From the NCBI GenBank assembly GCA_011525695.1, contig WYBX01000051.1, positions 4,691-68,690 of the forward strand: 64,000 bases of DNA, read 5' to 3'. The position numbers and the translations under genes were made by a program. Of the stretch, positions 8,162 through 52,903 are shown in pieces; the stretch's first letter is position 1, and the number at the start of each line of letters is the position of its first letter. The notes beneath the pieces are model-generated. The model was given only the letters and a program-made list of their open reading frames with translations. It did no database searches and was not told where the DNA came from. The DNA comes from Verrucomicrobiia bacterium. Its GTDB lineage: Bacteria; Verrucomicrobiota; Verrucomicrobiia; Opitutales; Opitutaceae.

Positions 8162-11100
8162 ATGAAGCTAGTGCTCCAGCGCTTTGGCTTGATGGGGATG
8201 TTCTTCGCGGTGACCACTGCCTGCTTCGCGCCTCCCTCGCCCTTCCTCTGGAAGGCCGACAACACCAACACCGGCGTGTTCGAATTGAACACGAACTGGG
8301 ATGGAGATATCGCGCCTCCACCTGGAACCGACCTGGCGTTTGGCACCGCGGTGACGTCGACCGTGAACCTGTTCGACCCCGCAGTGGCGAACAAGCTCAC
8401 GTTCACGCCTAGTTCCACCAACTACACTTTCCTCAAGAACGACGATGCGACGCTGACCTTGGGCGCAGGGGGCATCGTGATGGAGAGTGGTGGCAGCGGG
8501 GTGGTGAGCCTCCATTCCGACCTCGGGTTGATTCTTTCGGCGAGCCAGACGTGGGACTTGAACAGTTCCGGCGATTTCAGTGTGGCAGGGCTAATCTCAG
8601 GTGTGGATTTCGGCCTGACCAAGACCGGGACGGGCACGTTATTCCTGAGTGGCGCGAACACGTATACCGGTGGTACCACCATCAACGGCGGGACGCTCGT
8701 CGTCAGTTTGCTCGCGGACGGGGGGCTCCCGAGCAGTATCGGCGCTTCCGCGAGTGCAGCCCCGAATCTCGTGCTGAACGGCGCCGATGCCGAGCTCTAC
8801 TACGTCGGTGGTGCAGCGACCACCGATCGGCTGCTTACCCTCGGCGCCGACGGCGGCGCGATTGTGGCCTCTGGCGGTGGCGCGCTCCAGTTCACGAACA
8901 CCGGCAGTGTGGCGCTGGAAGGGGCGGATTTGCCCCGCACGCTGCGACTCGACGGTCTGAATACAGACGCCAACACGTTTGCGCCCGCGCTTGGCGACAG
9001 CGGGACGGGTCCCACCTCATTGCTCAAGTCCGGTGACGGCACATGGATTCTCGCCGGAGCAAACACGTACACGGGCGGAACGCTGATTGCCGGCGGTACG
9101 CTCGGGCTGGGTGCAAGCGGGGCGCTGCCCGAGGGTGGCGACCTGGTTTTCGGCGCGCCCGCTGGTGCCAGCGTGAACCTTGCGCTCAACGGATATTCCC
9201 AAACGGTTGGCGCGCTCGCCTTCGGGGGAGCCGACGGAGCTTCGCATTCCGGAGTCGATCTCGGTAGTGGCACGCTGACGCTCGGTGGCGACGTGACCTT
9301 CAACGCTGCCAATCATCCCTCTGACGTGTGGATTTCCGGCGGGACGCTGGAACTGAATGGAACGCGCACGTTTGACCTAGGGAATTCGGACAACGCCTAT
9401 GCCGAAGTCTCGATCTCATCGGCCATCACCGGGGCGGATTCCGCGATCGTGAAGTTGGGTGCCGGCACGCTGATGCTTTCCGGCGCCAACACATATTCGG
9501 GCCCCACCTCCATTCTCGCGGGGACGGTCTTGGTTTCGAGTGGTACTGCCCTGGGTGATACCGCGAATGGCACCGTCATCTCATCCGGCGCCACGCTTCA
9601 CCTGGTGGGCGCGGCGATCGGTGCGGAAAATATCACCGTGGAGGGCATCGGGACCGACGGAATGGGCGCCATTCTGGCGACCGGATGGTCATCGCTGGCG
9701 GGGACGGTGACGCTGACCAATGATGCCGCGATTGGCGGGATGGGAGAATTGCTGGTTTCCGGGGCGATTGGCGATGCCGGCGCAGGTTACGGGCTGACGA
9801 AGCTCGACTGGGGCCGACTCATTCTCACCGGCACCAATACCTACGGCGGGTTGACGACCATCGAAGGTGGTGCGCTGCAACTCGGCGATGGGGAAACGGC
9901 GGGTTCCATCCTGGGAGACGTGGCGCTCCCGGTTTACGACGCTACGCTCACCTTCAACCAGCCCGGCGCATTCGAATTCGCAGGCTCCGTGACCGGTGAG
10001 GGCCGGCTGGAGAAGCTTGGGAGCGGCGCGCTAACCCTGACCGGAGCAAACAGCTATACCGGAGGGACGTTCGTGGGAGACGGCACGCTGGCGTCTGGCG
10101 GCTCGGGCACCCTTTCCCCGGGAAGCGTGTTCTACGTGTCGAGCGGAGCCACCCTGGGCGTCAATCACAGCAACGTGATCGCAGGATTGGGGGATGGCTA
10201 CGACGGGGGCGGGACGGTTGCGATCGAGGACACTTCGCTCACGCTCGAGACCCCAATTTTCAGCACGGTCGAGTTTAGCGGGGACGTCACCGGCACCGGT
10301 TCGCTGGTGAAGACCGGCATCGGGATGCAGATCCTTTCGGGCGAGGTCAGCCACACGGGCGGGACGACGATTCAGGCCGGCGTACTTGCCTTCGGTCGAG
10401 ATGGCAGCACCCCGTTGAGTGAGACTCTCGGGGGTGACGTGACGTTCGCGGGCCATGTATTCTTCGGCGGAGGGTTGCTGAGGTTCGATTATGGGGGGGA
10501 GGGCCCGCTGACATTCACCGGCCGAATCACCGGCCCCGGCCGGGTCGATACGATTGGCGGCAATGAGCTCGTGTTCGCGAACACGGCCAATGATTACAGC
10601 GGCAGCACGACACTCACCGGTAGCACGCTCACATCGGGAGGGGTCAACACGTTCTCGCCCAACAGCGCCATCGTCCTGCAGCAGGGAGCGAGCCTCCAGG
10701 TCAATCACGACAACACCATCAAGGGACTTCGCGGCGGAATGGAGAGCTGGGATCCGCCTGACACCGTGTCCATTGCGGAAGGCGTCACGCTTACCCTCAA
10801 CACCCCGACCTTCCTCATCACCGATTTCGGAGGGAACATTGAGGGAGGCGGCGCATTGTCTAAGACCGGAATCGGCACGCAAATATTGAGCGGCGCGAGC
10901 AGCTTCATGGGAGGCCTGACAATCGAGGCCGGCGTGGTAACGATCGGAAATGGCGGATCCGGGGCTTCCCTCGACAGTGACGTCACATTTGCCGGCCACT
11001 TGGGCTTTGGCGGTGGGTTATTGCGTTTCAATGGTGCGGACTGGTCGGCGTACGCCGGCAACATCTCCGGCCCGGGCCGGGTCGATCAGATCGGAAGCGG

Positions 11101-42020: not shown

Positions 42021-42319
42021 GGATCGCCAATTGGGCACGGGATGATTGGCCGGCGTTGCTGGCGGCGAGCAACAGCGGGGCGCTGCCCTGCTTGCCCGGG
42101 GGCCGCCGCCATCCTGCCCGCAGACGGGCCCGGGCGGGCTCCGTCAAAGCTCGTCCAGATCAAAATGGCGCAGGGCGGGCGTTTTCATTGCCGGCACGAG
42201 GGGAGTCAATCCGCACGTGCAAATCCAGCTTGCCTGCGTCGCCGGGGATTGTCCGCATACCTGCGCCGAATGCCTCCGGGAGCGAACCCCTTCCCGGCCC
42301 ACCCACCCACTGGATCCCC

Positions 42320-45300
42320 GTGCGTCGACTCGTTGCCCCCATTCTGACGGCCATTGCCCTGCCCGTCTCCGCGGTTGCCGCGGATCTGCGGCCGGTGTCC
42401 TTCAATCGTGACATCCGGCCGATCATGGCGGACACGTGCTTTCTCTGCCATGGCCCGGACGCCAGTTCCCGCGAGGCGGGCATGCGGCTCGATCTCCGGG
42501 AGGAGGCCCTGAAACCGACGCGCAACGATGTCATCCCGATCGTTCCCGGCCGGCCGGAGGAAAGTGAAATCATCTTCCGGATCACTGATGATCTGGAACC
42601 GATGCCACCGGAGGAAGCGCACAAGCGGCTAACGTCGGAGCAAAAGGAACTGATTCGCCGTTGGGTGGCGGAGGGTGCCGTTTACGAGGTGCACTGGGCC
42701 TACGCGCCGCTGGTGCGTCCGCCGCTCCCGGATTCGGGGGTGGGCGGGAGCAGCCACCCGATCGACGCGTTCGTTCGCGCCCGACTCGCGGCGGAAGAGA
42801 TCGAACCGTCGCCCGAGGCGGACAAGTCGCGGCTGCTCCGCCGGCTTTCGCTCGATTTGACGGGGTTGCCGCCCACTCCCGCCGAACTCGGGGCCTTCCT
42901 CGCCGACCCGGATCCCGGGGCGTACGAGCGTCAGGTGGAGCGGTTGCTGGCGTCGCCCCACCATGGCGAGCGGATGGCGGTCTGGTGGCTCGATATCGCC
43001 CGATTCGCCGACACGGTCGGTTTTCACGGCGACCAGAACCAGCGGATCTTCCCCTATCGCGATTACGTCATCAACGCGTTCAATGCGAACAAGCCGTTCG
43101 ATCAGTTCACAATCGAGCAACTGGCCGGTGATCTCCTGCCGGGAGCCACCGAGGAGCACCGGATCGCCACCGGCTACAACCGGCTCAACATGATGACGCG
43201 GGAGGGCGGCGCGCAGCCGGCGGAATACATCGCGAAGTACGGGGCCGAGCGGGTGCGCTCCGTCTCCGCCGCCTGGCTGGGCAGCACGTTTGGCTGCGCC
43301 GAATGCCACGATCACAAATTCGATCCGATCAAGGCCAGCGACTTTTATGAACTGCAGGCGTTCTTCGCCGATTTGAAGCAGTGGGGCGTGTACAGTGATT
43401 ACGACTACACCCCCAACCCCGATCTCGCCGGATTCAACAACGATTACCCGTTTCCCCCCGAGATTGAGGTGCGCAGCCCCTATCTGGCGGCCCGCCAGCG
43501 GCAGCTGGAGGCGGAACTCGCCGACCACCGTGCTGCCAGCCGCGCGCGCCGGGAAAACGTCGAGGTCGCGCTGGCCTTCGAAGCCTGGATCGATCAGGCG
43601 CGCGCCTTCCTCGCCCGGGAGCCGTCCGGCTGGTCGCAGCCCGGCCTGGTCGCGGTGCTGCAGAAGAAGGCTGTCCCGGACGGTGAGCCGGTTCCCTCCG
43701 CCCCGGACGGAATTGTCTGCCTGTCCCAGGAGCTGCGGAGCGGCGAGTCGCTCCGCCTGACCCTGTCGGCGTCGCGCGATCCGATTGCTGCCGTGCGGAT
43801 CGATTTCACCGAGGCTCCCCGCGCTGATCCCGATGGCCGGAAAGACAACTCGCGCAATCGGGTCACGCTCGCCGCCGTCGTGCGCTCCGCCGGCGGGACG
43901 GAGCGCAAGGTCGGCTTCGTCTTTGCGGATGCCGCGGCCAAGGATCCCCACTTCCTCGGCGGCGCGGAGGCGATCGGGATTGTGCGGGGCTGGAGGATAC
44001 CACGCGGCGCGGCGGACGCCGTCCGGTCGGGCATCTGGCTGCCGGCGCAGCCGCTCCGGCTCGCGGAGGGCGAGGTGCTCGAGCTCAAGCTGAGCGGCGA
44101 GGCGGTGCCGCCGTTTCGCGTGTTCACTTCACCCTTCGGATCGGCCGATGCGCTCAGCTCGGCTTCCGCGGCCGTCCGGGAGGCGATCATGATTCCGCGG
44201 GAGCGGCGGCTGGAATCGCAGGACGAACTGCTTGCCGACGCCTGGCTCCTGAGCACGGCGTGGGATCCGGCGGCCTTCGACCGGCACCATGACTTGGCGG
44301 AGAAGATCCGGGAAACCCGGGACGGTCGCGCCTGGACCATGGTTTCGCAGGCCGCGGAGCCGCGGCCGGTCCGGGTGCTGGCCCGCGGCGACTGGCAGGA
44401 TGAGTCGGGCCCGCTGGTGCTGCCGGCCACGCCGAGTTTCCTGCCCGGCCGGCGCGAAAGCACCGCGGAAAAGCGGCTCACCCGGCTGGACTTCGCCCGC
44501 TGGCTCGTCTCCGCGGAGAATCCAATCACTGCGCGCACGGTGGTGAACCGGCTCTGGGCGATGTTCTTCGGCACCGGGCTCAGCGCCACCCTCGACGATC
44601 TCGGAGCCCAGGGCGAAGTCCCGTCGCACCCGGAATTGCTCGAGTGGCTGGCCTGCGAATTCCGGGAGCAGAGCTGGGATCTCCGGCACATGGTCCGGCT
44701 GCTGGTGACCAGTGCCACCTACCGGCAGGGCAGCAACCTGCGTCCGGAACTGCTCGAGCGCGACCCGGGAAACCGGTTGCTGGCGGCGCAGAACCCCCGC
44801 CGGCTCGAGGCGGAATTTGTCCGGGACAACGCCCTCGCGATCGCCGGCAACCTCAACCTCCGGGCCCTCGGCGGCCCCAGCGTGAAGCCGTATCAGCCCG
44901 CCGGCTACTATGCCGCGCTCCAGTTCCCCGATCGCACGTACGTGGCCAGCGACGACGACGAGCAGTGGCGCCGCGGGGTGTACATGCACTGGCAGCGGAC
45001 ATTCCTGCACCCGATGCTGGCGAACTTCGATGCTCCGGCACGGGACGAATGCGCGGCGCAACGCGTCCCGAGCAACACGCCGCAGCAGGCACTCACGCTG
45101 CTCAACGACCCGACCTTCCTCGAGGCGGCACGGCTTTTCGCCGCGCGGCTGCAGCGCGAGGCCGACGGCGACGAGGGCCGGATCCGCCGTGCATTTCTCA
45201 TCGCATTGAGCCGCGATCCGCGACCTGCCGAGCAGGCCTCCCTGCTCGGCTTCTTGCGCGAAGTCCGCCGGCACTATGGCGCCAATGTGGCCGAGGCCGG

Positions 45301-45418
45301 GCAGTTGCTCGGCATCGGCATCGCCCCCCGGCCAGGGGGAGATCCGGTCGAACTCGCCGCCTGGACCAGCCTGGCGCGGGTGCTCCTCAATTCCCACGAG
45401 GTCATCACCCGGTATTGA
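42320..45418 (+). CDS. PSCyt1 / DUF1549 / DUF1553 (PSD1) protein
   Basis: The planctomycete cytochrome c motif FNRDIRPIMADTCFLCHGPD is present, with a later CAECHDHKFDP, and the DUF1549/DUF1553 architecture. The likely start is the GTG at 42320, giving signal VRRLVAPILTAIALPVSAVAA. The track ORF begins at 42056. Confidence 0.85.
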   Translation: MRRLVAPILTAIALPVSAVAADLRPVSFNRDIRPIMADTCFLCHGPDASSREAGMRLDLREEALKPTRNDVIPIVPGRPEESEIIFRITDDLEPMPPEEAHKRLTSEQKELIRRWVAEGAVYEVHWAYAPLVRPPLPDSGVGGSSHPIDAFVRARLAAEEIEPSPEADKSRLLRRLSLDLTGLPPTPAELGAFLADPDPGAYERQVERLLASPHHGERMAVWWLDIARFADTVGFHGDQNQRIFPYRDYVINAFNANKPFDQFTIEQLAGDLLPGATEEHRIATGYNRLNMMTREGGAQPAEYIAKYGAERVRSVSAAWLGSTFGCAECHDHKFDPIKASDFYELQAFFADLKQWGVYSDYDYTPNPDLAGFNNDYPFPPEIEVRSPYLAARQRQLEAELADHRAASRARRENVEVALAFEAWIDQARAFLAREPSGWSQPGLVAVLQKKAVPDGEPVPSAPDGIVCLSQELRSGESLRLTLSASRDPIAAVRIDFTEAPRADPDGRKDNSRNRVTLAAVVRSAGGTERKVGFVFADAAAKDPHFLGGAEAIGIVRGWRIPRGAADAVRSGIWLPAQPLRLAEGEVLELKLSGEAVPPFRVFTSPFGSADALSSASAAVREAIMIPRERRLESQDELLADAWLLSTAWDPAAFDRHHDLAEKIRETRDGRAWTMVSQAAEPRPVRVLARGDWQDESGPLVLPATPSFLPGRRESTAEKRLTRLDFARWLVSAENPITARTVVNRLWAMFFGTGLSATLDDLGAQGEVPSHPELLEWLACEFREQSWDLRHMVRLLVTSATYRQGSNLRPELLERDPGNRLLAAQNPRRLEAEFVRDNALAIAGNLNLRALGGPSVKPYQPAGYYAALQFPDRTYVASDDDEQWRRGVYMHWQRTFLHPMLANFDAPARDECAAQRVPSNTPQQALTLLNDPTFLEAARLFAARLQREADGDEGRIRRAFLIALSRDPRPAEQASLLGFLREVRRHYGANVAEAGQLLGIGIAPRPGGDPVELAAWTSLARVLLNSHEVITRY

Positions 45419-45466
45419 TGGCTGCCCCCCACTCCACGTTCCCGAGAACGCAGACCTGCTTCCGCC

Positions 45467-46915
<1,449 letters not shown>

Positions 46916-47045: not shown

Positions 47046-48521
47046 CTACACCTTGTTCGGGGCCGGAACCTCGAACCCGGGGCTGTGCGGATCCTGCAGC
47101 AACGCGTTCGCCTCGTTCCGGTATTCGCCGGTGTGCCGCTCGGTCTTCGGATCGAACGTGAGCCAGGGACCCACGATGTACTCCGCGCCATCCTCCGGCA
47201 CGCCGACGCCGTCCCGCATGATCGCATGCAGTTTCATGAAGTGCTCGTGCGCCTCGGCATTGTCGCCAAATCGGCCGGCCTTGGAGTTGAAGGGCACCTT
47301 CTTTCCCAACCGGTAGGAATTGTTCATGAGATGGCCGAGCACGCTGCTGTTATGGGCGTCGAGCGCGTTGCCATTTGCCATCTCCGGCTTGCCGGCCCGG
47401 CAGGCGGCGATGAAGGCGCCCCAGTTGCCGCCGGGTGTCACCTTGCCGGGTGGGACGTCCACCTTCTCACCCGTGCTGCTGCCGCGGGGATAATACACGT
47501 TCCGCACGATCTTCCCGCCATCCTCGAAGTAATACTCGTTCTCCACCTGTCGCAGGTAACCCTCGTAATTCACGTTGCGCACGTTGAAGAACGCGTACTG
47601 CCCGTTGGGATACTCACCGATTCCGAACATCGTATTCGGAGTCTCGCCCTGGTCGTCCCATTTGAAGCGGCCGCCCAGCGCCATCACGCGGACCGGGTGG
47701 GTGAGCCGCGGCTCGAGCGCCCAGCGCGCGACGTCGAGTTCGTGGGTGCCTTGGTTGTTCATGTCGCCATTACCTGTCGCCCAGAACCAGTGCCAGTTGT
47801 AATGCACGAGGTTCGCGTGGTAGTCCCGGATCTGCGCCGGACCGCGCCAGAGGTTCCAGTCGAGGTGGGCGGGCGGCGCGGACACGGGCTTGAAGCCGAT
47901 GCTCTCGCGCGGCTTGCAGCAGTAGCCGTAGGCAATCTTCAGCTTGCCCCACTTGCCCGCCTGGATCGCCTCGTGCAGCCCGGCGACCTTTTCGCTGCTG
48001 CGCTGCTGGGTGCCATGCTGGATCACCACGCCGTATTTTTTCTGCGCCGCGACCACGGATCGGCCCTCGGCCACGTCATGGCTCATCGGCTTCTCGACAT
48101 AGACGTGCTTGCCGGCCTGGGCGGCGCGGATGGTCATGAGCGAGTGCCAGTGGTTGGGCGTGGCGATCGAGATCGCATCGAGCGTCGGATCCTCGAGGGC
48201 ACGGCGATAGTCGGCAACCCCCTTGCAGTTGGATTTTCCCGCCAGCGTTTCCTGCAGGCTCTTCAGCGCGCCATCGAGCACCTGCTGGTCCGGGTCGATC
48301 AGGTAGGCGATCTCTACGCCGGGCTGCTCCAGCCAGTTGGCAATGTGGGCCTTCCCGCGGCCACGCAGGCCCGCGACCGCAATTCGCAACCGGTTGTTGG
48401 CGCCCAGGACCTGGGCGGAGGAACGGGTCCCGCTGACGAGGGCGAGGGAGCCTGCGGCGAGGGCGGATTGCTTGAGGAATGTGCGGCGTGACAGGGAGTT
48501 CATGAGAGGATTCCTTTGCAT
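47046..48521 (-). CDS. TAT-exported Gfo/Idh/MocA-family oxidoreductase
   Basis: The signal MQRNPLMNSLSRRTFLKQSALAAGSLALV, the motif RIAVAGLRGRGKAH and EKPM are present. The ATG at 48521 (or 48503) is preferred over the 48908 ORF start. Confidence 0.85.
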   Translation of the reverse strand: MQRNPLMNSLSRRTFLKQSALAAGSLALVSGTRSSAQVLGANNRLRIAVAGLRGRGKAHIANWLEQPGVEIAYLIDPDQQVLDGALKSLQETLAGKSNCKGVADYRRALEDPTLDAISIATPNHWHSLMTIRAAQAGKHVYVEKPMSHDVAEGRSVVAAQKKYGVVIQHGTQQRSSEKVAGLHEAIQAGKWGKLKIAYGYCCKPRESIGFKPVSAPPAHLDWNLWRGPAQIRDYHANLVHYNWHWFWATGNGDMNNQGTHELDVARWALEPRLTHPVRVMALGGRFKWDDQGETPNTMFGIGEYPNGQYAFFNVRNVNYEGYLRQVENEYYFEDGGKIVRNVYYPRGSSTGEKVDVPPGKVTPGGNWGAFIAACRAGKPEMANGNALDAHNSSVLGHLMNNSYRLGKKVPFNSKAGRFGDNAEAHEHFMKLHAIMRDGVGVPEDGAEYIVGPWLTFDPKTERHTGEYRNEANALLQDPHSPGFEVPAPNKV

Positions 48522-48628
48522 ACGGCTGCCGGTTTCAGGCAACCTGCTGCGAGGCAACCCGAGCCGCCGCCGCAAGGCAAGTGTGATGCCAGTCGCAAAT
48601 TGCCCGGCCCGGCGGCGGGGTGATTCCA

Positions 48629-48672
48629 GGGCTGCAGCTGGAAAGTCACCGGGCTGCATCTGGAAAGTCACC
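48629..48672. repeat. Tandem duplication of 22 bp (2 units, 1 mismatch)
   Basis: The two units are GGGCTGCAGCTGGAAAGTCACC and GGGCTGCATCTGGAAAGTCACC. They lie 108-151 bp upstream of the Gfo/Idh/MocA start at 48521. Confidence 0.85.
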
Positions 48673-49030
48673 AGGGTGCCGTTCAACTCCGCGCACCACG
48701 ACTGCCATCTGCGCCGCCATTTGGCGCTGTGAAGGACATCGTCAGCCTCGCTGTCCTGCGGCGGTACGCGCGTGAAGGGCTCGTTCACGCGCCGTTGCTC
48801 CCCGCCGCTCCCACCGCGGAGATCCTCGATGTCCGGCCGGCACCGCGGGTGCAGCTGCAGCCGTTGCCGGGTTTCGGCGCACTCAACCTTCCGTTGGCGC
48901 AGCCGCACCGGTTTGGGCGGACGCGTCCGCTTGGCGGCAACCGCGTGCGCGCGGGGCCACGCGGCTTACATTGGCGTTCGGATTCTTGCCCGGAATGGAT
49001 TCCAGGCCATTGGCAATGCACGAGGTTTTA

Positions 49031-49067
49031 GCCAGTTCAGTGTTACGATCGTAACAGCGATCTGGCT
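49031..49067 (+). promoter_or_regulatory. 37-bp repeat, copy 1 (16-bp perfect palindrome core); candidate operator of the PaaX-like gene
   Basis: The sequence is GCCAGTTCAG-TGTTACGATCGTAACA-GCGATCTGGCT. The core (49041-49056) ends 44 nt upstream of the ATG at 49101. Confidence 0.8.
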
Positions 49068-49100
49068 CGCCCTGCCCCTACCAGCTGTCAGACTCGAGAC

Positions 49101-49856
49101 ATGCACCCGCTGATCGGGCCGTCGCTTCAGCTGGTCTTCTTGCTGACGGAGGCCCTGGGTGAGGTCTCGACTACGGCGATAAACGCGGCCTGGGAGCGCT
49201 GGATTGGGCCGCAGCGTTTCCAGCGAAAGCTGACGCAGCTTGTCGAACACGGCTGGCTGCAATCGCGACGCAATGCAGTCGATGAGCGGGTGGTTGGCCT
49301 CACCGCCTCCGGCCGGCGGATCGCTCTCGGCGGCAGGGATCCCGAAGCGTGTTGGAGTCGGACATGGGACGGCAAATGGCGCCTCGCGCTGTTCGATATC
49401 CCCGAAGTGCGTGTGGCGCTTCGGGCGAAGTTGCGCCGGAGGCTCTGCGTGTTGGGGTTTGGCTATCTCCAGAACAGCGTTTGGATAAGTCCCGACCACG
49501 CTGATATCCTGATGACGGCAATGCGAGACAGCCGCACCAACGTGGAGTCGTTCATGCTGATGGAAGCTCGGCCGGCTGGCGGCGAAACCGATCTTCAGAT
49601 TGTGGAGGGGGCCTGGGACTTTGGCCGCATCAACCGCAACTACGAAATTCATCTCGAGATTCTGAGTGATGTCCCCGGGCGCGGATCCACACGGCAGAGC
49701 AGGCGAAACTGGTTAGCCGTCGAATGGAAGGCTTGGGAGCGCGCGATGGGCAGCGACCCGCTGCTGCCCGAGGTCCTGCTGCCGAAGCCGTATCTTGGTC
49801 GGGAAGCATGGGCACGGCGCTGGCAAGTGCTCCATCGGATTTTGGCTGCCGCCTGA
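49101..49856 (+). CDS. PaaX-family transcriptional regulator-like protein
   Basis: The 251-aa protein has an N-terminal wHTH-like region (LTQLVEHGWLQSRRN). The motif WDGKWRLALFDIPEVRVALRAKLRRRLCVLGFGYLQNSVWISP parallels E. coli PaaX WDGKWLLLL. The C-terminal DPLLPEVLLPKPYLG parallels PaaX DPLLPEELLPAHWAG. Confidence 0.75.
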   Translation: MHPLIGPSLQLVFLLTEALGEVSTTAINAAWERWIGPQRFQRKLTQLVEHGWLQSRRNAVDERVVGLTASGRRIALGGRDPEACWSRTWDGKWRLALFDIPEVRVALRAKLRRRLCVLGFGYLQNSVWISPDHADILMTAMRDSRTNVESFMLMEARPAGGETDLQIVEGAWDFGRINRNYEIHLEILSDVPGRGSTRQSRRNWLAVEWKAWERAMGSDPLLPEVLLPKPYLGREAWARRWQVLHRILAAA

Positions 49857-49943
49857 AGCTTGCAGGTTCGCTGTCCGGTGGTCTGCGGTTTGTGTTGTGG
49901 AGGCTTGCGACCATCCCGGCAGCACTCTCGTGTGGTGCCGCCT

Positions 49944-49980
49944 GCCAAATCGATGTTACGATCGTAACATCGATCTGGCT
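49944..49980 (+). promoter_or_regulatory. 37-bp repeat, copy 2 (palindrome extended to 26 bp)
   Basis: The sequence is GCCAAATCGA-TGTTACGATCGTAACA-TCGATCTGGCT. ATCGATGTTACGATCGTAACATCGAT (49949-49974) is a perfect 26-bp palindrome. Confidence 0.8.
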
Positions 49981-50080
49981 GGGCAACTGTGGCACGCGCG
50001 CCGGACTGCCGGGTAACGATCCGCCTCTGGGATTCGACACACCGGCGGATCGGAGGGTCTTCACATGGGGCGACCGCTAA

Positions 50081-50117
50081 GCCAATTCACTGTTACGATC
50101 GTTACACCGATTTGGTC
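50081..50117 (+). promoter_or_regulatory. 37-bp repeat, copy 3 (one core mismatch)
   Basis: The sequence is GCCAATTCAC-TGTTACGATCGTTACA-CCGATTTGGTC. It has the same orientation as copies 1 and 2, and its centre is 137 bp from the centre of copy 2. Confidence 0.8.
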
Positions 50118-50298
50118 GACGCGCCGGGAAAATCGAACAGAAGCATCCGGAACCGCCGCCCTTCAGGACGGCGTCCGGTTCGGAGCGCGAGCGCAACACC
50201 CGCGTTCGTATGCGAGTGGTCGTGATGGTGGCGATCGCCGGGGTGACCTTTGATCCCGCCATCACAGGCGTTTTCACCCGGGAGCAGGGCCCCGCCAG

Positions 50299-50541
50299 CT
50301 AGTCGGCAACGAGTTCCTGCGGAGCCGCTGCCGAGACGCCTGCCAGCACTTTCAAGCCATGCTCCGCCATCCGCATCCGGGCGCCGTGGTCCATCCCGCC
50401 GGCCAGCACGAGCTCGGTGCCGGCCGCGCAATGATGGTGCCGGCACATACCCGGAACCGCAGTCCAACCGAGAATTACGCGAATGAAAGACGCGGCGGCT
50501 GCGCCGCGTCTCCATTTCCTGTCCCCGTGCAATCCATGCAA
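50299..50541 (-). pseudogene. Possible fragment of a NifX/NifB-like (Nitro_FeMo-Co domain) small protein
   Basis: The C-terminal half, TELVLAGGMDHGARMRMAEHGLKVLAGVSAAAPQELV, resembles the (V/L)(I/V)xGGxGxxAxxxLxxxGIxV pattern of that family. No matching N-terminal half is present and the ORF has a TTG start. This is a weak call. Confidence 0.25.
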
Positions 50542-50594
50542 TCCTTGGCCAGTACGAGCCGCGATGCATTGGTGGCCGGGAGGATCCTGGCCGT

Positions 50595-50949
50595 ATGGAT
50601 TCTCTTTTGGCAGTCGATTCGACCTTGGTCGCTGGGGTGCCGGCCGGGCCCTGGTCGCTGACGGTCCGGACCGAGAACGATCTGCCGGTCAATTCCGACC
50701 GTTACTACACGAACGGCGTCAGCCTATCGTTCGCCCACTGTGCCGACGAGCAGACCTCCCTGTGGCCGTGGGTGCTGCGGCTGCCCGGGCTTGGCCGGTC
50801 AGGCTTGCTGGCGAATGGGTATGATGTTGGCCAAGTCATGGTCACGCCGGCAGCTCACCGCGTCGTGGGTCGCCTGGGGACGCGAGTTTGACGCCCAGGT
50901 GGTGCGGCACTCGGAATTCGGAGCCGTGAGCTTCAGCTATTTCCGATAG
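50595..50949 (+). pseudogene. Lipid A deacylase LpxR-family (DUF2219) gene with apparent large internal deletion and frameshift
   Basis: The N-terminal piece, WSLTVRTENDLPVNSDRYYTNGVSLSF...GYDVGQVMVTPA, matches the family start. A different frame then ends in REFDAQVVRHSEFGAVSFSYFR-stop, which looks like the C-terminal beta-strand of the family. About 200 aa of barrel in between are absent. Confidence 0.4.
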
Positions 50950-51025
50950 GGCCGCATGCCGCTTGAGCACGAAGCCGAAACCCGGATTCGATTGACGGCA
51001 GGACCGGACCAGGGATTCCAGCGCG

Positions 51026-52903
51026 TCACGGGCCGCCGAGCAGCTTTTCCATCTCATCCATCACCCGGTTCATCCGGCGCATCGTGAGGTCGAGCGGTTC
51101 GCGGGTGGTCATGTCGACACCGGCTCGGCGGAGCAGCGCGATGGGATAATCGGAGCCGCCGGCGGAAATCAGCTCGAGGTACCTGCGGGTGGCGTCCGGG
51201 TCGCCGGCCAGGACCCGCTCGGACAGCGCCGCGGAGGCGGTGTAGGATGTGGCGTACTGAAACACGTAGTACGCCCGATAGAAGTGCGGGACATAGGACC
51301 ATTCGTGCGCCACGTAGTCGTCCACCACGGTGACGCCCTCGTCGTGCCCGTAGTACCGGCGCGTGATCCCCGCATACAGCGCCGCCAGGGCGTCGCCCGT
51401 CAGCGCCTCGCCCCGCTCGGCCATCTCGTGCATCCGCAGCTCGAACTCGGCGAACTGCGTCTGCCGGAACACGGTTCCCTTGATGCCCTCGAGGTAGTTC
51501 CCCAGCAGCGACAGCCGCGCGTCGCGGTCCCGGACCTGGCGCAGCACATGATCGATCAGCAGCGCCTCGTTGAACGTGGAGGCCACCTCGGCGAGGAAGA
51601 TCGGGTACTCGGCCTTGGCGTAAGGCTGCGCCTGGCTCGAGAGGAAGCTGTGCATGGTGTGGCCGAGCTCGTGCGCCAGCGTGCTCATGTCGTCGTACTT
51701 GTCGGTGTAGTTCAGGAGCATGTAGGGATGCACATCGTACGTGCCGTTGGAATAGGCGCCGGAGCGCTTGCCGGAGGTGGGATAAAGGTCGATCCAGCGT
51801 TCGCGGAACGCCCGCTCCACCACGGCGACGTAGTCGCGCCCGAGCGGGGCCAGCGCGGCGAGTATCTCGCGCTGCGCCTGCTCCACCGGGTACTCGAGAT
51901 CGACCGATCGGACCAGCGGTGCGTACAGGTCGTAATAATGCAGCGTGTCCACCCCGAGCATCCGCTGCCGCAGCCGCAGATAGCGGTGGAACGTCGGCAG
52001 GTTCGCATTCACGCCTTCGATCAGCCGGTGGTAGACCTCCACCGGGATGTTGTTCACGTCGAGCGCGGCCTCGAGCGTCGAGCCGTACCGGCGGGCCGTC
52101 ATCAGGAAAAGGTCCTTCTGCACGCTGGCATTCATCGTCGAGCCGAACGTCCGCCGGTAATTCCCGAGCGCCCCGAAGAACTCGGACATGACCTGCGACC
52201 GATCCTCGCGACGGGGGCTGGCCCGGTGCAGCGCGAACGCCGCGGCGCTCAGCGTCACCGTCGTGCCATCGCCCAGCTTGACGGTGGGATAGGGGAAATC
52301 CGCATCGGCAAAGACGCCAAAGATGTCCGCCGGCGTGCCCGCGAGCACGCCGGTTTGCGCGATCAGGCGCTCCTCGGCATCGGTGCCGGTGTGCGGCTGC
52401 CGCCGGATGATGTTGTCGAGGAAATGGTCATACGGCTTCAGGCCCGGCCGTTCGCGGAGGAATTGCCGGATCCGTTCGCCGCCGAGCTTGAGGATCTCGG
52501 GCTTCAGATAAGCGGTCTCCGCCGCGAAGGCGGTGGCGAGCCGCGCCATGTCGCGGCTCATCGCCTGTCCCTTCGCCTCGCGGGTATCCTCGTCGGCGAG
52601 TTGCAGCGCGTAGGCCTGGAGGCGATCGAGCTGGCGGCTCAGCGTGGCCATCGTCTCGAGTGCGGTCTCGAGCCCCGCGGCGGAGGCGCCCAGCTGGCCG
52701 GCGAAGGTCTTCATCCGCGGCAGCTCCGCTTCGAATTTTTCCCTGTCCTGGCGCCAGGCCTCCTCGCTCGGAAACAGGTCCGCGAGGTTCCACTTGTATT
52801 GCTCCGGAATCTGGGCGCGTTCCGCCGGCTGCGCCGGCAGCGAAGCGGTCGCCAGCCCGACGAGGGCCGTCGCGGCGATCAAGATTGTCTTGGGAATTCT
52901 CAT
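51026..52903 (-). CDS. pepF: Oligoendopeptidase F family (M3B) metallopeptidase, secreted
   Basis: The zinc motif HELGHTMH is present and the M3B-like length and pattern fit. The signal peptide MRIPKTILIAATALVGLATASLPAQ starts at the ATG at 52903. Confidence 0.9.
   Translation of the reverse strand: MRIPKTILIAATALVGLATASLPAQPAERAQIPEQYKWNLADLFPSEEAWRQDREKFEAELPRMKTFAGQLGASAAGLETALETMATLSRQLDRLQAYALQLADEDTREAKGQAMSRDMARLATAFAAETAYLKPEILKLGGERIRQFLRERPGLKPYDHFLDNIIRRQPHTGTDAEERLIAQTGVLAGTPADIFGVFADADFPYPTVKLGDGTTVTLSAAAFALHRASPRREDRSQVMSEFFGALGNYRRTFGSTMNASVQKDLFLMTARRYGSTLEAALDVNNIPVEVYHRLIEGVNANLPTFHRYLRLRQRMLGVDTLHYYDLYAPLVRSVDLEYPVEQAQREILAALAPLGRDYVAVVERAFRERWIDLYPTSGKRSGAYSNGTYDVHPYMLLNYTDKYDDMSTLAHELGHTMHSFLSSQAQPYAKAEYPIFLAEVASTFNEALLIDHVLRQVRDRDARLSLLGNYLEGIKGTVFRQTQFAEFELRMHEMAERGEALTGDALAALYAGITRRYYGHDEGVTVVDDYVAHEWSYVPHFYRAYYVFQYATSYTASAALSERVLAGDPDATRRYLELISAGGSDYPIALLRRAGVDMTTREPLDLTMRRMNRVMDEMEKLLGGP

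Follow-up and report, generated by a model that had tools for sequence, protein, structure and literature searches.

A PaaX-fold regulator-like gene enclosed by long palindromes: candidate operators of an autoregulated, apparently relocating cassette

The window analyzed here, a 64,000-nucleotide stretch of a contig from a Verrucomicrobiia bacterium, contains a gene for a 251-aa PaaX-like protein bracketed by three copies of a 37-nt palindromic element, and the question raised by this locus is what such long palindromes do on both sides of a regulator-like gene. In the original prediction, made from the letters of the window, they were read as operators of an autoregulated repressor whose cargo had been lost, was a non-coding RNA or lay elsewhere in the genome, or else as the flanks of a small mobile module. 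Comparison with homologous loci suggested that the arrangement defines a widespread PaaX-fold subfamily, in which a palindrome of 32-40 bp, a promoter of 35 nt, a gene of about 250-260 codons with a presumably leaderless start, and the palindrome once more follow one another. No description of this subfamily or of its bracket layout was found in the literature.

The three copies of the 37-nt unit were indeed recovered at 49031-49067, 49944-49980 and 50081-50117 by repeat comparison, with copies 2 and 3 being 86% and 81% identical to copy 1, respectively. Every copy is itself a palindrome of about 36-38 bp with the form AGCCAG-N5-TGTTACGATCGTAACA-N5-CTGGCT, the core of which reads TGTTAC GATC GTAACA. 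Copy 1 (49030..49067, no strand assigned), which lies upstream of the gene and is the proposed operator O-up, reads AGCCAG-TTCAG-TGTTACGATCGTAACA-GCGAT-CTGGCT; its centre is located 52.5 nt 5' of the ATG, its core ends 44 nt 5' of the ATG at 49101, in agreement with the distance first given, and its right outer arm ATCTGGCT (49059-49067) occupies -42..-34, i.e., the -35 region. Copy 2, the first downstream palindrome (49944..49980, no strand assigned), is centred 106 nt past the stop codon and contains a perfect 26-bp palindrome at 49949-49974, or a 36-bp palindrome if one mismatched pair is allowed. Copy 3 (50081..50117, no strand assigned), which is the second of the two palindromes downstream of the gene, carries one core mismatch (TGTTACGATCGTTACA) and weaker outer arms (GCCAAT...ATTTGGTC). 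The description of a perfect core in copies 1 and 2, a single mismatch in copy 3 and a 26-bp perfect palindrome in copy 2 was hence accurate. When up to three mismatches were allowed, the 16-bp core TGTTACGATCGTWACA occurred only at these three sites in the 64 kb, against a chance expectation of 0.15 matches, and the observed count was reached in 0 of 100 shuffles; the three repeats are real and non-random. The remaining ~62 kb of the window contained no further palindrome copies.

Some of the finer structure read into these repeats did not hold. Copies 1 and 2 matched at 31 of 36 positions in the direct and equally in the inverted comparison, and because each copy is itself a palindrome, the "same orientation" ascribed to the copies is undefined and the statement has no meaning. 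The repeats are spaced by 913 and 137 bp, and the centres of copies 2 and 3 do lie 137 bp apart as had been reported; the phasing of about 13 helical turns drawn from this distance was not conserved, the corresponding spacing being 205 bp in the homologous locus L002. The putative isolated half-site GTAACGATC at 50013 is a chance occurrence, since the same string recurs at 10937 and 55961 in the window and, read in the orientation required of a half-site, does not form part of the palindrome.

The comparative set consisted of 81 non-redundant homolog loci with 41-77% identity from Opitutus terrae, metagenome-assembled genomes (MAGs) and metagenomes, and a metagenome scan with the family alignment yielded 80 further loci with 40-56% identity. 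The close homologs comprised a syntenic locus at 77% identity (L001), L002 at 73%, L003 and L004 at 57%, and the three loci of O. terrae CP001032 at 56% (L005-L007). All seven of these loci (55-77% identity) had a long palindrome of their own ~54 nt before the start codon and a second copy past the stop codon. For the homolog of O. terrae PB90-1 (CP001032.1, gene at 2316353-2317111), the two palindromes are located at 2316279-2316318 and 2317277-2317312. The same held for most of the 81 loci, in which a lineage-specific palindrome of 26-46 bp before the start codon recurred after the stop codon. In 200-nt segments, palindromes with a score of at least 12 were detected upstream in 40/74 and downstream in 37/77 cases, compared with 0/229 for random segments of the same loci, and an imperfect copy was visible by eye in most of the low-scoring loci. 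The position of the upstream copy was tightly constrained: among 49 loci scoring at least 10, its centre was at -54 in 28, at -52 in 9 and at -50 in 4 (41/49 at -50..-54). The downstream centres had modes at +26 and +16/18 nt past the stop codon and usually fell at 16-28 nt, with a range of -6 to +184, the copy itself usually starting no more than ~10 nt from the stop codon; in the Opitutaceae clade it was shifted outward to +70..+184 nt.

What is shared by the family is an inner core TGTnnC-N4-GnnACA, an A/T-rich spacer and outer arms, 32-40 bp in total. Among the close homologs, the letters of the palindrome varied by lineage while the dyad and the central GATC were kept: TGTTAC GATC GTAACA in the window and L001, TGTCGC GATC GCGACA in L002, AGTCC GATC GGACT in L003 and GTGGTCC GATC GGACCAC in O. 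terrae. Other cores of the family include TGTCGC-ATAT-GCGACA and TGTCCC-ACGT-GGGACA. The paired copies inside one locus matched each other, and their relative orientation was direct in 14 loci, inverted in 12 and equal in 20, such a mixture being predicted for the site of a symmetric dimer. These observations, namely the recurrence in most of the 81 loci, the lineage-dependent variation and the fixed promoter register described below, gave strong comparative support to the originally proposed reading of the palindromes as operators of the adjacent, autoregulated regulator.

Non-coding sequence conserved among the window, L001 and L002 was limited to the palindromes and the -10 region, and the sequence around copy 3 and between copies 2 and 3 was not conserved with L001 or L002. 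An open reading frame (ORF) or an RNA hidden in the interval from copy 2 to copy 3 was rejected on this ground, together with the lack of codon periodicity in 49860-50140. The proposal that the regulated cargo had been lost or was a non-coding RNA consequently found no support: an upstream site and at least one downstream site are the norm of the family, the interval between copies 2 and 3 is unconserved, and there was no Rfam match. Extra copies were essentially absent from the ±4 kb flanks of ~75 loci, a third copy being found only in the window and L002. Two tandem palindromes were observed upstream of the gene in L083 and L086 (CGACAAT...ACGGTCGT / ACGATCGT...ATTGTCG), so that lineages differ in how many sites a cassette carries (2-3). 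The subfamily amounted to at least 116 clusters at 50% identity (E <= 1e-30), with named members from Verrucomicrobia, Chloroflexi and Methylomirabilis-type lineages. Several one-sided loci were contigs broken inside a palindrome. The two Logan assemblies of the window locus (L168/L169), made independently from short reads, as well as the ends of L002 and L006, likewise stop inside the downstream palindrome; perfect palindromes break k-mer assemblers, and the element will therefore be under-represented or truncated in metagenome contigs.

The constant distance between the upstream palindrome and the gene was examined in an alignment, anchored at the start codon, of 45 non-redundant upstream regions. 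The resulting profile showed T-35 (69%) and G-33 (53%) abutting the palindrome, a 17-bp spacer, and then G-14 (64%), A-11 (64%), T-7 (80%) and C-1 (82%), and a Shine-Dalgarno-like 4-mer was present in 2/45 regions. On account of this start-anchored conservation and the rarity of Shine-Dalgarno-like motifs, the subfamily probably uses a conserved promoter of the sigma-70 type at which transcription begins with the A of the ATG (+1) and yields a leaderless mRNA, and the family palindrome would span about -72 to -36. In the window, the putative extended -10 element TGTCAGACT lies at 49086..49094 (+), corresponding to -15..-7 with T-15, G-14, A-11 and T-7, and C-1/A+1 fall at 49100/49101 in the register of the family; CAGACT in L001 and CAAAGT in L002 occupy the same offset as the -10 of the window. 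No conserved promoter-like or flanking signal was found on either side of the downstream copies.

The gene itself (49101..49856, +) encodes a 251-aa protein with a clear match to Pfam PaaX_M (PF20803, the Cas2-like central domain; E 1.8e-19, 70 bits versus a cutoff of 24, residues 87-167). PaaX_C (PF08223) scored 18.2 bits, below its cutoff of 22, and no Pfam match was obtained for the N-terminal domain; the C-terminal domain is covered by a full-length fold match to 8a39, 3kfw and 3l09, and its DPLLP motif is conserved. The assignment to the PaaX family, for which a hidden Markov model search had been suggested as a check, was thus upheld by PaaX_M, with PaaX_C remaining sub-threshold. PDB 8a39 was also matched by sequence (E 2.9e-6). 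An AlphaFold2 model built from a 34-sequence family alignment (predicted local distance difference test, pLDDT, 88.2; predicted template modelling score, pTM, 0.84) contained, at its N-terminus, a winged helix-turn-helix (wHTH) domain with the topology H-H-H-beta-beta at residues 6-67 (pLDDT 86-92), and the N-terminal ~70 residues superposed on MarR/PadR winged-helix structures, including DNA complexes, with root-mean-square deviations of 2.2-3.0 Å over ~70 columns. The best Foldseek match of the model was E. coli PaaX 8a39 (E 4.6e-10, template modelling score 0.58, 23% identity), and Rv0674 and 3l09 were matched as well.

The score for TIGR02277, the PaaX equivalog model, was 56.5 bits versus a cutoff of 264.55, and for this reason the protein, as judged from its profile matches and predicted structure, is a member of the PaaX family and fold and not a PaaX ortholog. 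No paa genes were found among the large ORFs in 36-64 kb of the window or in the homolog loci, and there was no conserved neighbor; both the equivalog score and the surroundings of the gene bore out the expectation of a non-canonical PaaX without neighboring paa genes. The protein carries the motif WRLxLFD(I/V)PE...R.RLRR.L...GFG.LQ.SVW, which we take to resemble the N-terminal motif of Cas2. D99 (F98-D99), at the end of the Cas2-like strand beta1 and at what is presumably the site of the catalytic Asp of Cas2, was invariant in the family alignment, the corresponding residue being Glu in E. coli PaaX and Thr in Rv0674. Both matches to Cas2 itself, from the NCBIfam model TIGR01573 (14.3 bits versus a cutoff of 24.5) and from PADLOC, were weak (E 0.038 and 0.01; residues 94-128). 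Searches of Pfam, NCBIfam, PHROGs and PADLOC revealed no HUH, DDE, or tyrosine or serine recombinase motifs or domains in the protein, and the family alignment contained no invariant His. The GC content at third codon positions (GC3) of the gene was 0.74 versus 0.86-0.88 in the flanking DUF1501, GFO/IDH/MocA and PepF genes, which is consistent with a foreign origin.

Taking these results together, we favor, with moderate confidence, a model in which the PaaX-fold regulator is autoregulated and has the palindromes as its cognate operators, the downstream sites act as auxiliary or boundary sites, and the cassette moves as a unit. The protein would form a symmetric dimer like the PaaX-family proteins, and its winged-helix domains would bind the bipartite palindrome through the inner TGTnnC/GnnACA half-sites and through outer arms ~30 bp apart. 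A dimer occupying the upstream palindrome (roughly -71 to -34) would cover the -35 region and set the level of its own expression, most likely by repression, which is favored by analogy with PaaX at Px, and a small ligand at the C-terminal domain would probably relieve this repression. The downstream copies would serve as second sites that most likely loop out the ~0.9-kb gene together with the upstream site and/or mark or insulate its 3' boundary, and the whole cassette would be a unit that duplicates or is transferred between genomic sites.

Several points weigh against this model. Binding, transcription start and control of expression are deduced, for every member of the family, from sequence features. 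The -35 hexamer of the window is poor (TCGCCC), and a generic sigma-70 consensus scan of 48400-50700 returned no promoter. The operator centre at -53 abuts the core promoter and does not lie at the -10 or +1, so that activation would be as possible as repression. Mutual information between protein residues and operator positions was not localized to the wHTH domain and was dominated by phylogeny, and the evidence for co-evolution of specificity goes no further than lineage tracking. Near-perfect palindromes of 38-46 bp exceed the perfection that typical operators would need, and a downstream operator is without precedent in PaaX biology, its function being a conjecture. Furthermore, orphan copies occur by dnaK, queC and araD with neither an adjacent family gene nor an in-register promoter, and one MAG (MFD01689.bin.2.50) contains ~110-bp repeat units.

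The latter findings bear on the rival that survives best, in which the locus is a selfish palindrome system of the REP/RAYT (repetitive extragenic palindrome/REP-associated tyrosine transposase) or IS200-like type, and the wHTH-Cas2-fold protein would be an enzyme that cuts or recombines the palindromes and not a transcription factor. We consider this unlikely overall, while several observations speak for it. In one clade, genes with 76-92% nucleotide identity were embedded in unrelated flanks, genes 84-93% identical likewise had unlike surroundings, and in at least 8 non-syntenic pairs the homology extended from 16-18 nt left of the upstream centre to 12-18 nt right of the downstream centre. 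These limits coincide with the outer edges of the palindromes, and the gene therefore apparently relocates together with its palindromes as one cassette. To this extent, namely for the cassette edges in the non-syntenic loci of one clade, the alternative raised at the outset, a small mobile module flanked by repeats, was sustained; no target-site duplication was seen in the flanks listed. In L024, a ~160-bp partial duplicate of the 3' end of the gene (520-720; 46 aa, E 6e-21, containing a stop in frame) lay directly left of the upstream palindrome and is what remains of a second cassette, arranged head to tail with the first and having one palindrome in common with it; it was the only significant second-copy remnant, since short "RTF..*"-like flanks elsewhere were not significant as signs of tandem arrays. 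The atypical GC3 of the gene, the family-invariant D99 on the Cas2-like strand and the weak Cas2 match can also be counted on this side.

The orphan palindromes constitute the main evidence suggesting such a selfish, REP-like side of the system. A scan of a genome collection for the 16-mer of the window gave matches in at least 80 stretches, the window's own genome not being among the matches listed; most of those listed were chance single matches in unrelated phyla, and the core with the full extended palindrome was present in three Verrucomicrobia/Opitutaceae MAGs among them. In OH_PDB_75, two copies flank a family gene (L095), and orphans lie upstream of dnaK (L098) and just past an araD-like gene (L154). 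MFD01689.bin.2.50 has five copies on three contigs, with pairs 99 and 143 bp apart that each combine TGTTAC and TGATAC variants. Its dispersed ~110-bp repeat units (L118 1709-1870, L123 5250-5357 and L137 6874-7112) hold a 40-bp palindrome, either GGCCA...TGTTACGATCGTAACA...TGGCC or a variant with TGATAC...GTATCA, and one of the pairs makes up an imperfect inverted repeat of 237 bp (L137 6883-7111) with a layout like that of a REPIN (REP doublet forming a hairpin) or a miniature inverted-repeat transposable element (MITE). These doublets may parallel the pair formed by copies 2 and 3 in the window. In nzgw611, a 46-bp perfect orphan palindrome was found (L099). Thus near-perfect intergenic palindromes of 38-46 bp without a functional theme do exist in Verrucomicrobia MAGs; a role of the orphans as promoters of a wider regulon was rejected, as they had no -10 and start codon in the family register and their neighbors shared no function.

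Two further groups of matches to the core were noted. In Caballeronia and Burkholderia (L092, L112, L120, L127-L129, L132, L134, L135, L144, L147, L150, L153, L157, L160 and L162), TGTTACGATCGTAACA stands beside TTTCCCTA; the Caballeronia sites are conserved in many species, with no extended palindrome or PaaX-like gene in the tile, and are probably the operator of an unrelated regulator. Perfect or near-perfect palindromes of 34-44 bp with an identical 16-bp core were also observed in distant phyla (Patescibacteria and Bacteroidota), i.e., in L101 (7794-7837, Saccharimonadales), L163 (476-519), L152, L133 and L165, among which only L101 had a weak PaaX_M-like ORF, ~3 kb away (E 2e-10).

Against a selfish system stand the lack of any HUH, DDE, tyrosine or serine recombinase feature, the superposition of the whole protein on the repressor PaaX, and the absence of target-site duplications from the flanks listed. 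The mixed orientation of the terminal copies is unlike that of transposon ends, and the copies are few, with none in the remainder of the window (~62 kb) or within ±4 kb of ~75 loci. One clade (L014, L015, L016, L036, L066 and L087) was stably syntenic, all-versus-all BLAST of the flanking ORFs having otherwise revealed no neighbors conserved beyond clade-level synteny, and the palindrome is held in a fixed promoter register. No viral relatives of the family were found, the matches in viral DNA being chance ones without extended palindromes, and plasmids yielded only distant actinobacterial PaaX-family proteins. An extension of the operator model, in which the protein would also nick or recombine its bounding palindromes, possibly as cruciforms, through the Cas2-like domain and the invariant Asp, thereby moving the ~0.9-kb cassette and seeding orphans and doublets, is in our estimation a doubtful addition, slightly less credible than the selfish system itself.

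The remaining explanations rank below the selfish one. If only the upstream site were a true operator, the downstream and orphan copies would be non-functional by-products of duplication or recombination. The looser downstream spacing (-6 to +184 versus -54±2 upstream), the unconserved downstream flanks and the degenerate third copy fit this idea; the downstream copies are nevertheless kept, in agreement with their upstream counterparts, across lineages with protein identities as low as 41%, where neutral DNA would have decayed like the adjacent intergenic sequence, and we judge it quite improbable. Still less credible is the possibility that the palindromes are sites of a host-encoded site-specific recombinase, as in Xer/dif modules, with the PaaX-like gene as mere cargo. 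A length of 32-36 bp with two arms and a short centre resembles the layout of lox/dif-type sites, the cassette limits lie at the palindromes, and single orphans could be empty attachment sites. However, the palindrome tracks the lineage of the protein, the cargo always belongs to one family while that of dif modules is varied, a palindromic centre gives no directionality, no recombinase gene is linked, and the promoter register would be left unexplained.

Finally, the palindromes might act as RNA hairpins, either as 5'/3' stabilizers or as transcription terminators insulating the gene, and perfect arms of 13-18 bp would indeed give very stable stems, with the downstream copy commonly beginning within ~10 nt of the stop codon. 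The mismatched pairs comprised 17 G:U, 27 A:C and 31 other in the upstream copies and 26 G:U, 18 A:C and 57 other in the downstream copies; at the imperfect positions, pairs compatible with G:U on the transcribed strand were thus not in excess, and most mismatches were not of the wobble type. An intrinsic terminator with a GC-rich stem and a U-tract was rejected, as the scan of 48400-50700 found one terminator-like site, located at no palindrome copy. Since there is no G:U bias, no U-tract after the copies and no Rfam match, and the upstream copy lies 5' of the putative -35 and +1 and hence outside the predicted transcript, the symmetry is maintained in DNA and not in RNA, as would be expected from a symmetric DNA-binding dimer. 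With the inner and outer blocks also conserved in sequence beyond mere pairing, the hairpin explanation is the least probable of all and can hardly be entertained.

The operator model places the system nearest to PaaX, an autorepressor with a 39-bp bipartite palindromic operator, TGATTC-N27-GAATCA (PMC9493321). With the E. coli and Pseudomonas proteins and their Pa, Pz and Px operators, the subfamily shares the fold of wHTH, Cas2-like and helical C-terminal domains and a long bipartite palindrome (39 bp versus 36-40 bp here). It differs in that the operator sequence is unrelated and has the additional inner core TGTnnC-N4-GnnACA, that there is no paa linkage, that the operator is repeated past the stop codon, that the promoter is putatively leaderless and the cassette stands alone and apparently relocates, and that the residue after the Cas2-like beta1 is an invariant Asp in place of the Glu of PaaX. 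REP/RAYT (REPIN) systems are similar in having a gene between copies of its presumed cognate, lineage-specific palindrome, and in the orphans and the inverted doublets ~100-140 bp apart in the intergenic DNA of some relatives. In contrast to them, the present system has no HUH/Y1 (IS200-like) transposase, only three copies in 64 kb, all at the gene, and near-perfect palindromes of 32-40 bp in mixed orientation, without a conserved GTAG head and with the upstream copy locked to the promoter. Insertion sequences and MITEs differ by their fixed inverted ends, compared with 14 direct, 12 inverted and 20 equal pairs here, and by the duplications that are missing from the flanks listed.

The looping repressors of lac (O1/O2/O3), gal and deo likewise use symmetric sites that are identical, number two or three and are separated by several hundred bp, one of them at the promoter and the rest downstream, an arrangement compatible with cooperative binding and looping; here the predicted loop would contain the regulator's own gene, the distal site lies just past the stop codon throughout the family, and no structural genes are controlled in cis. 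The Cas2-like central domain (PF20803) recalls Cas2 and VapD, from which the protein is distinguished by its weak Cas2 matches, with a nuclease role being putative. An adaptation module of a CRISPR-Cas (clustered regularly interspaced short palindromic repeats) system was rejected, as TIGR01573 was below its cutoff, the spacings of 913 and 137 bp are irregular with the gene as a "spacer", and no cas1 was noted in the examined flanks.

The surroundings of the gene in the window contain PSCyt/PSD1, DUF1501 and GFO/IDH/MocA oxidoreductase genes, an LpxR fragment, an M3 peptidase gene and others. At 42056-46915, the gene for a 1120-aa PSCyt1/PSCyt2/PSD1 protein precedes that for a DUF1501 protein, a pair typical of Planctomycetes and Verrucomicrobia, and the order of the DUF1501 and GFO/IDH/MocA genes in the window is shared by L001. 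Between the upstream region of the GFO/IDH/MocA gene and copy 1 lie ~420 bp (48608-49030), compared with ~12 bp in the syntenic L001; this interval includes a tandem 22-nt direct repeat GGGCTGCAGCTGGAAAGTCACC (two units, 95%) at 48629-48672 and some coding-like GC periodicity at 48700-48880, where an ORF (48729-49031) has no Pfam match. Downstream of the gene, the absence of an intact gene that had been noted was confirmed for 49857-50594, which had no Pfam matches and, at 49860-50140, no codon-position GC periodicity. Weak periodicity at 50260-50440 overlaps an 80-aa ORF without a Pfam match (50299-50541, -), which could be a gene remnant 3' of copy 3. The sequence at 50595-50891 (+) encodes the N-terminal part of an LpxR lipid-A deacylase (Pfam LpxR, 1.8e-9, profile positions 13-93 of 323; GC3 0.76), the remainder of which is missing before the end (51026) of the convergent M3 peptidase gene, and the fragment is probably a decaying pseudogene. 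Rfam gave no matches in 48300-51200 even at a permissive E-value.

As judged from the evidence above, the encoded protein would be a PaaX-type autoregulator in its working and fold, set apart from true PaaX by its equivalog score, its lack of paa linkage and its operator sequence. If the operator model is true, the subfamily would provide ready cognate pairs of protein and operator with differing specificity, as well as a gene enclosed by its own operators that would be usable for studies of looping and insulation, and the label "PaaX family" outside paa clusters would say little about function. If the selfish-element model is true, the subfamily would be mobile DNA of a new class that carries a Cas2-fold protein and parallels RAYT/REP in function, and would afford a view of a Cas2-like protein tied to palindromic repeats outside CRISPR. 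For either model, O. terrae PB90-1, a cultured strain whose genome is complete, would be a direct experimental system. In both cases, a rule appears to hold for the whole subfamily, namely that a regulator gene is accompanied by its own long palindromes on both sides and by a presumably leaderless promoter in a fixed register.

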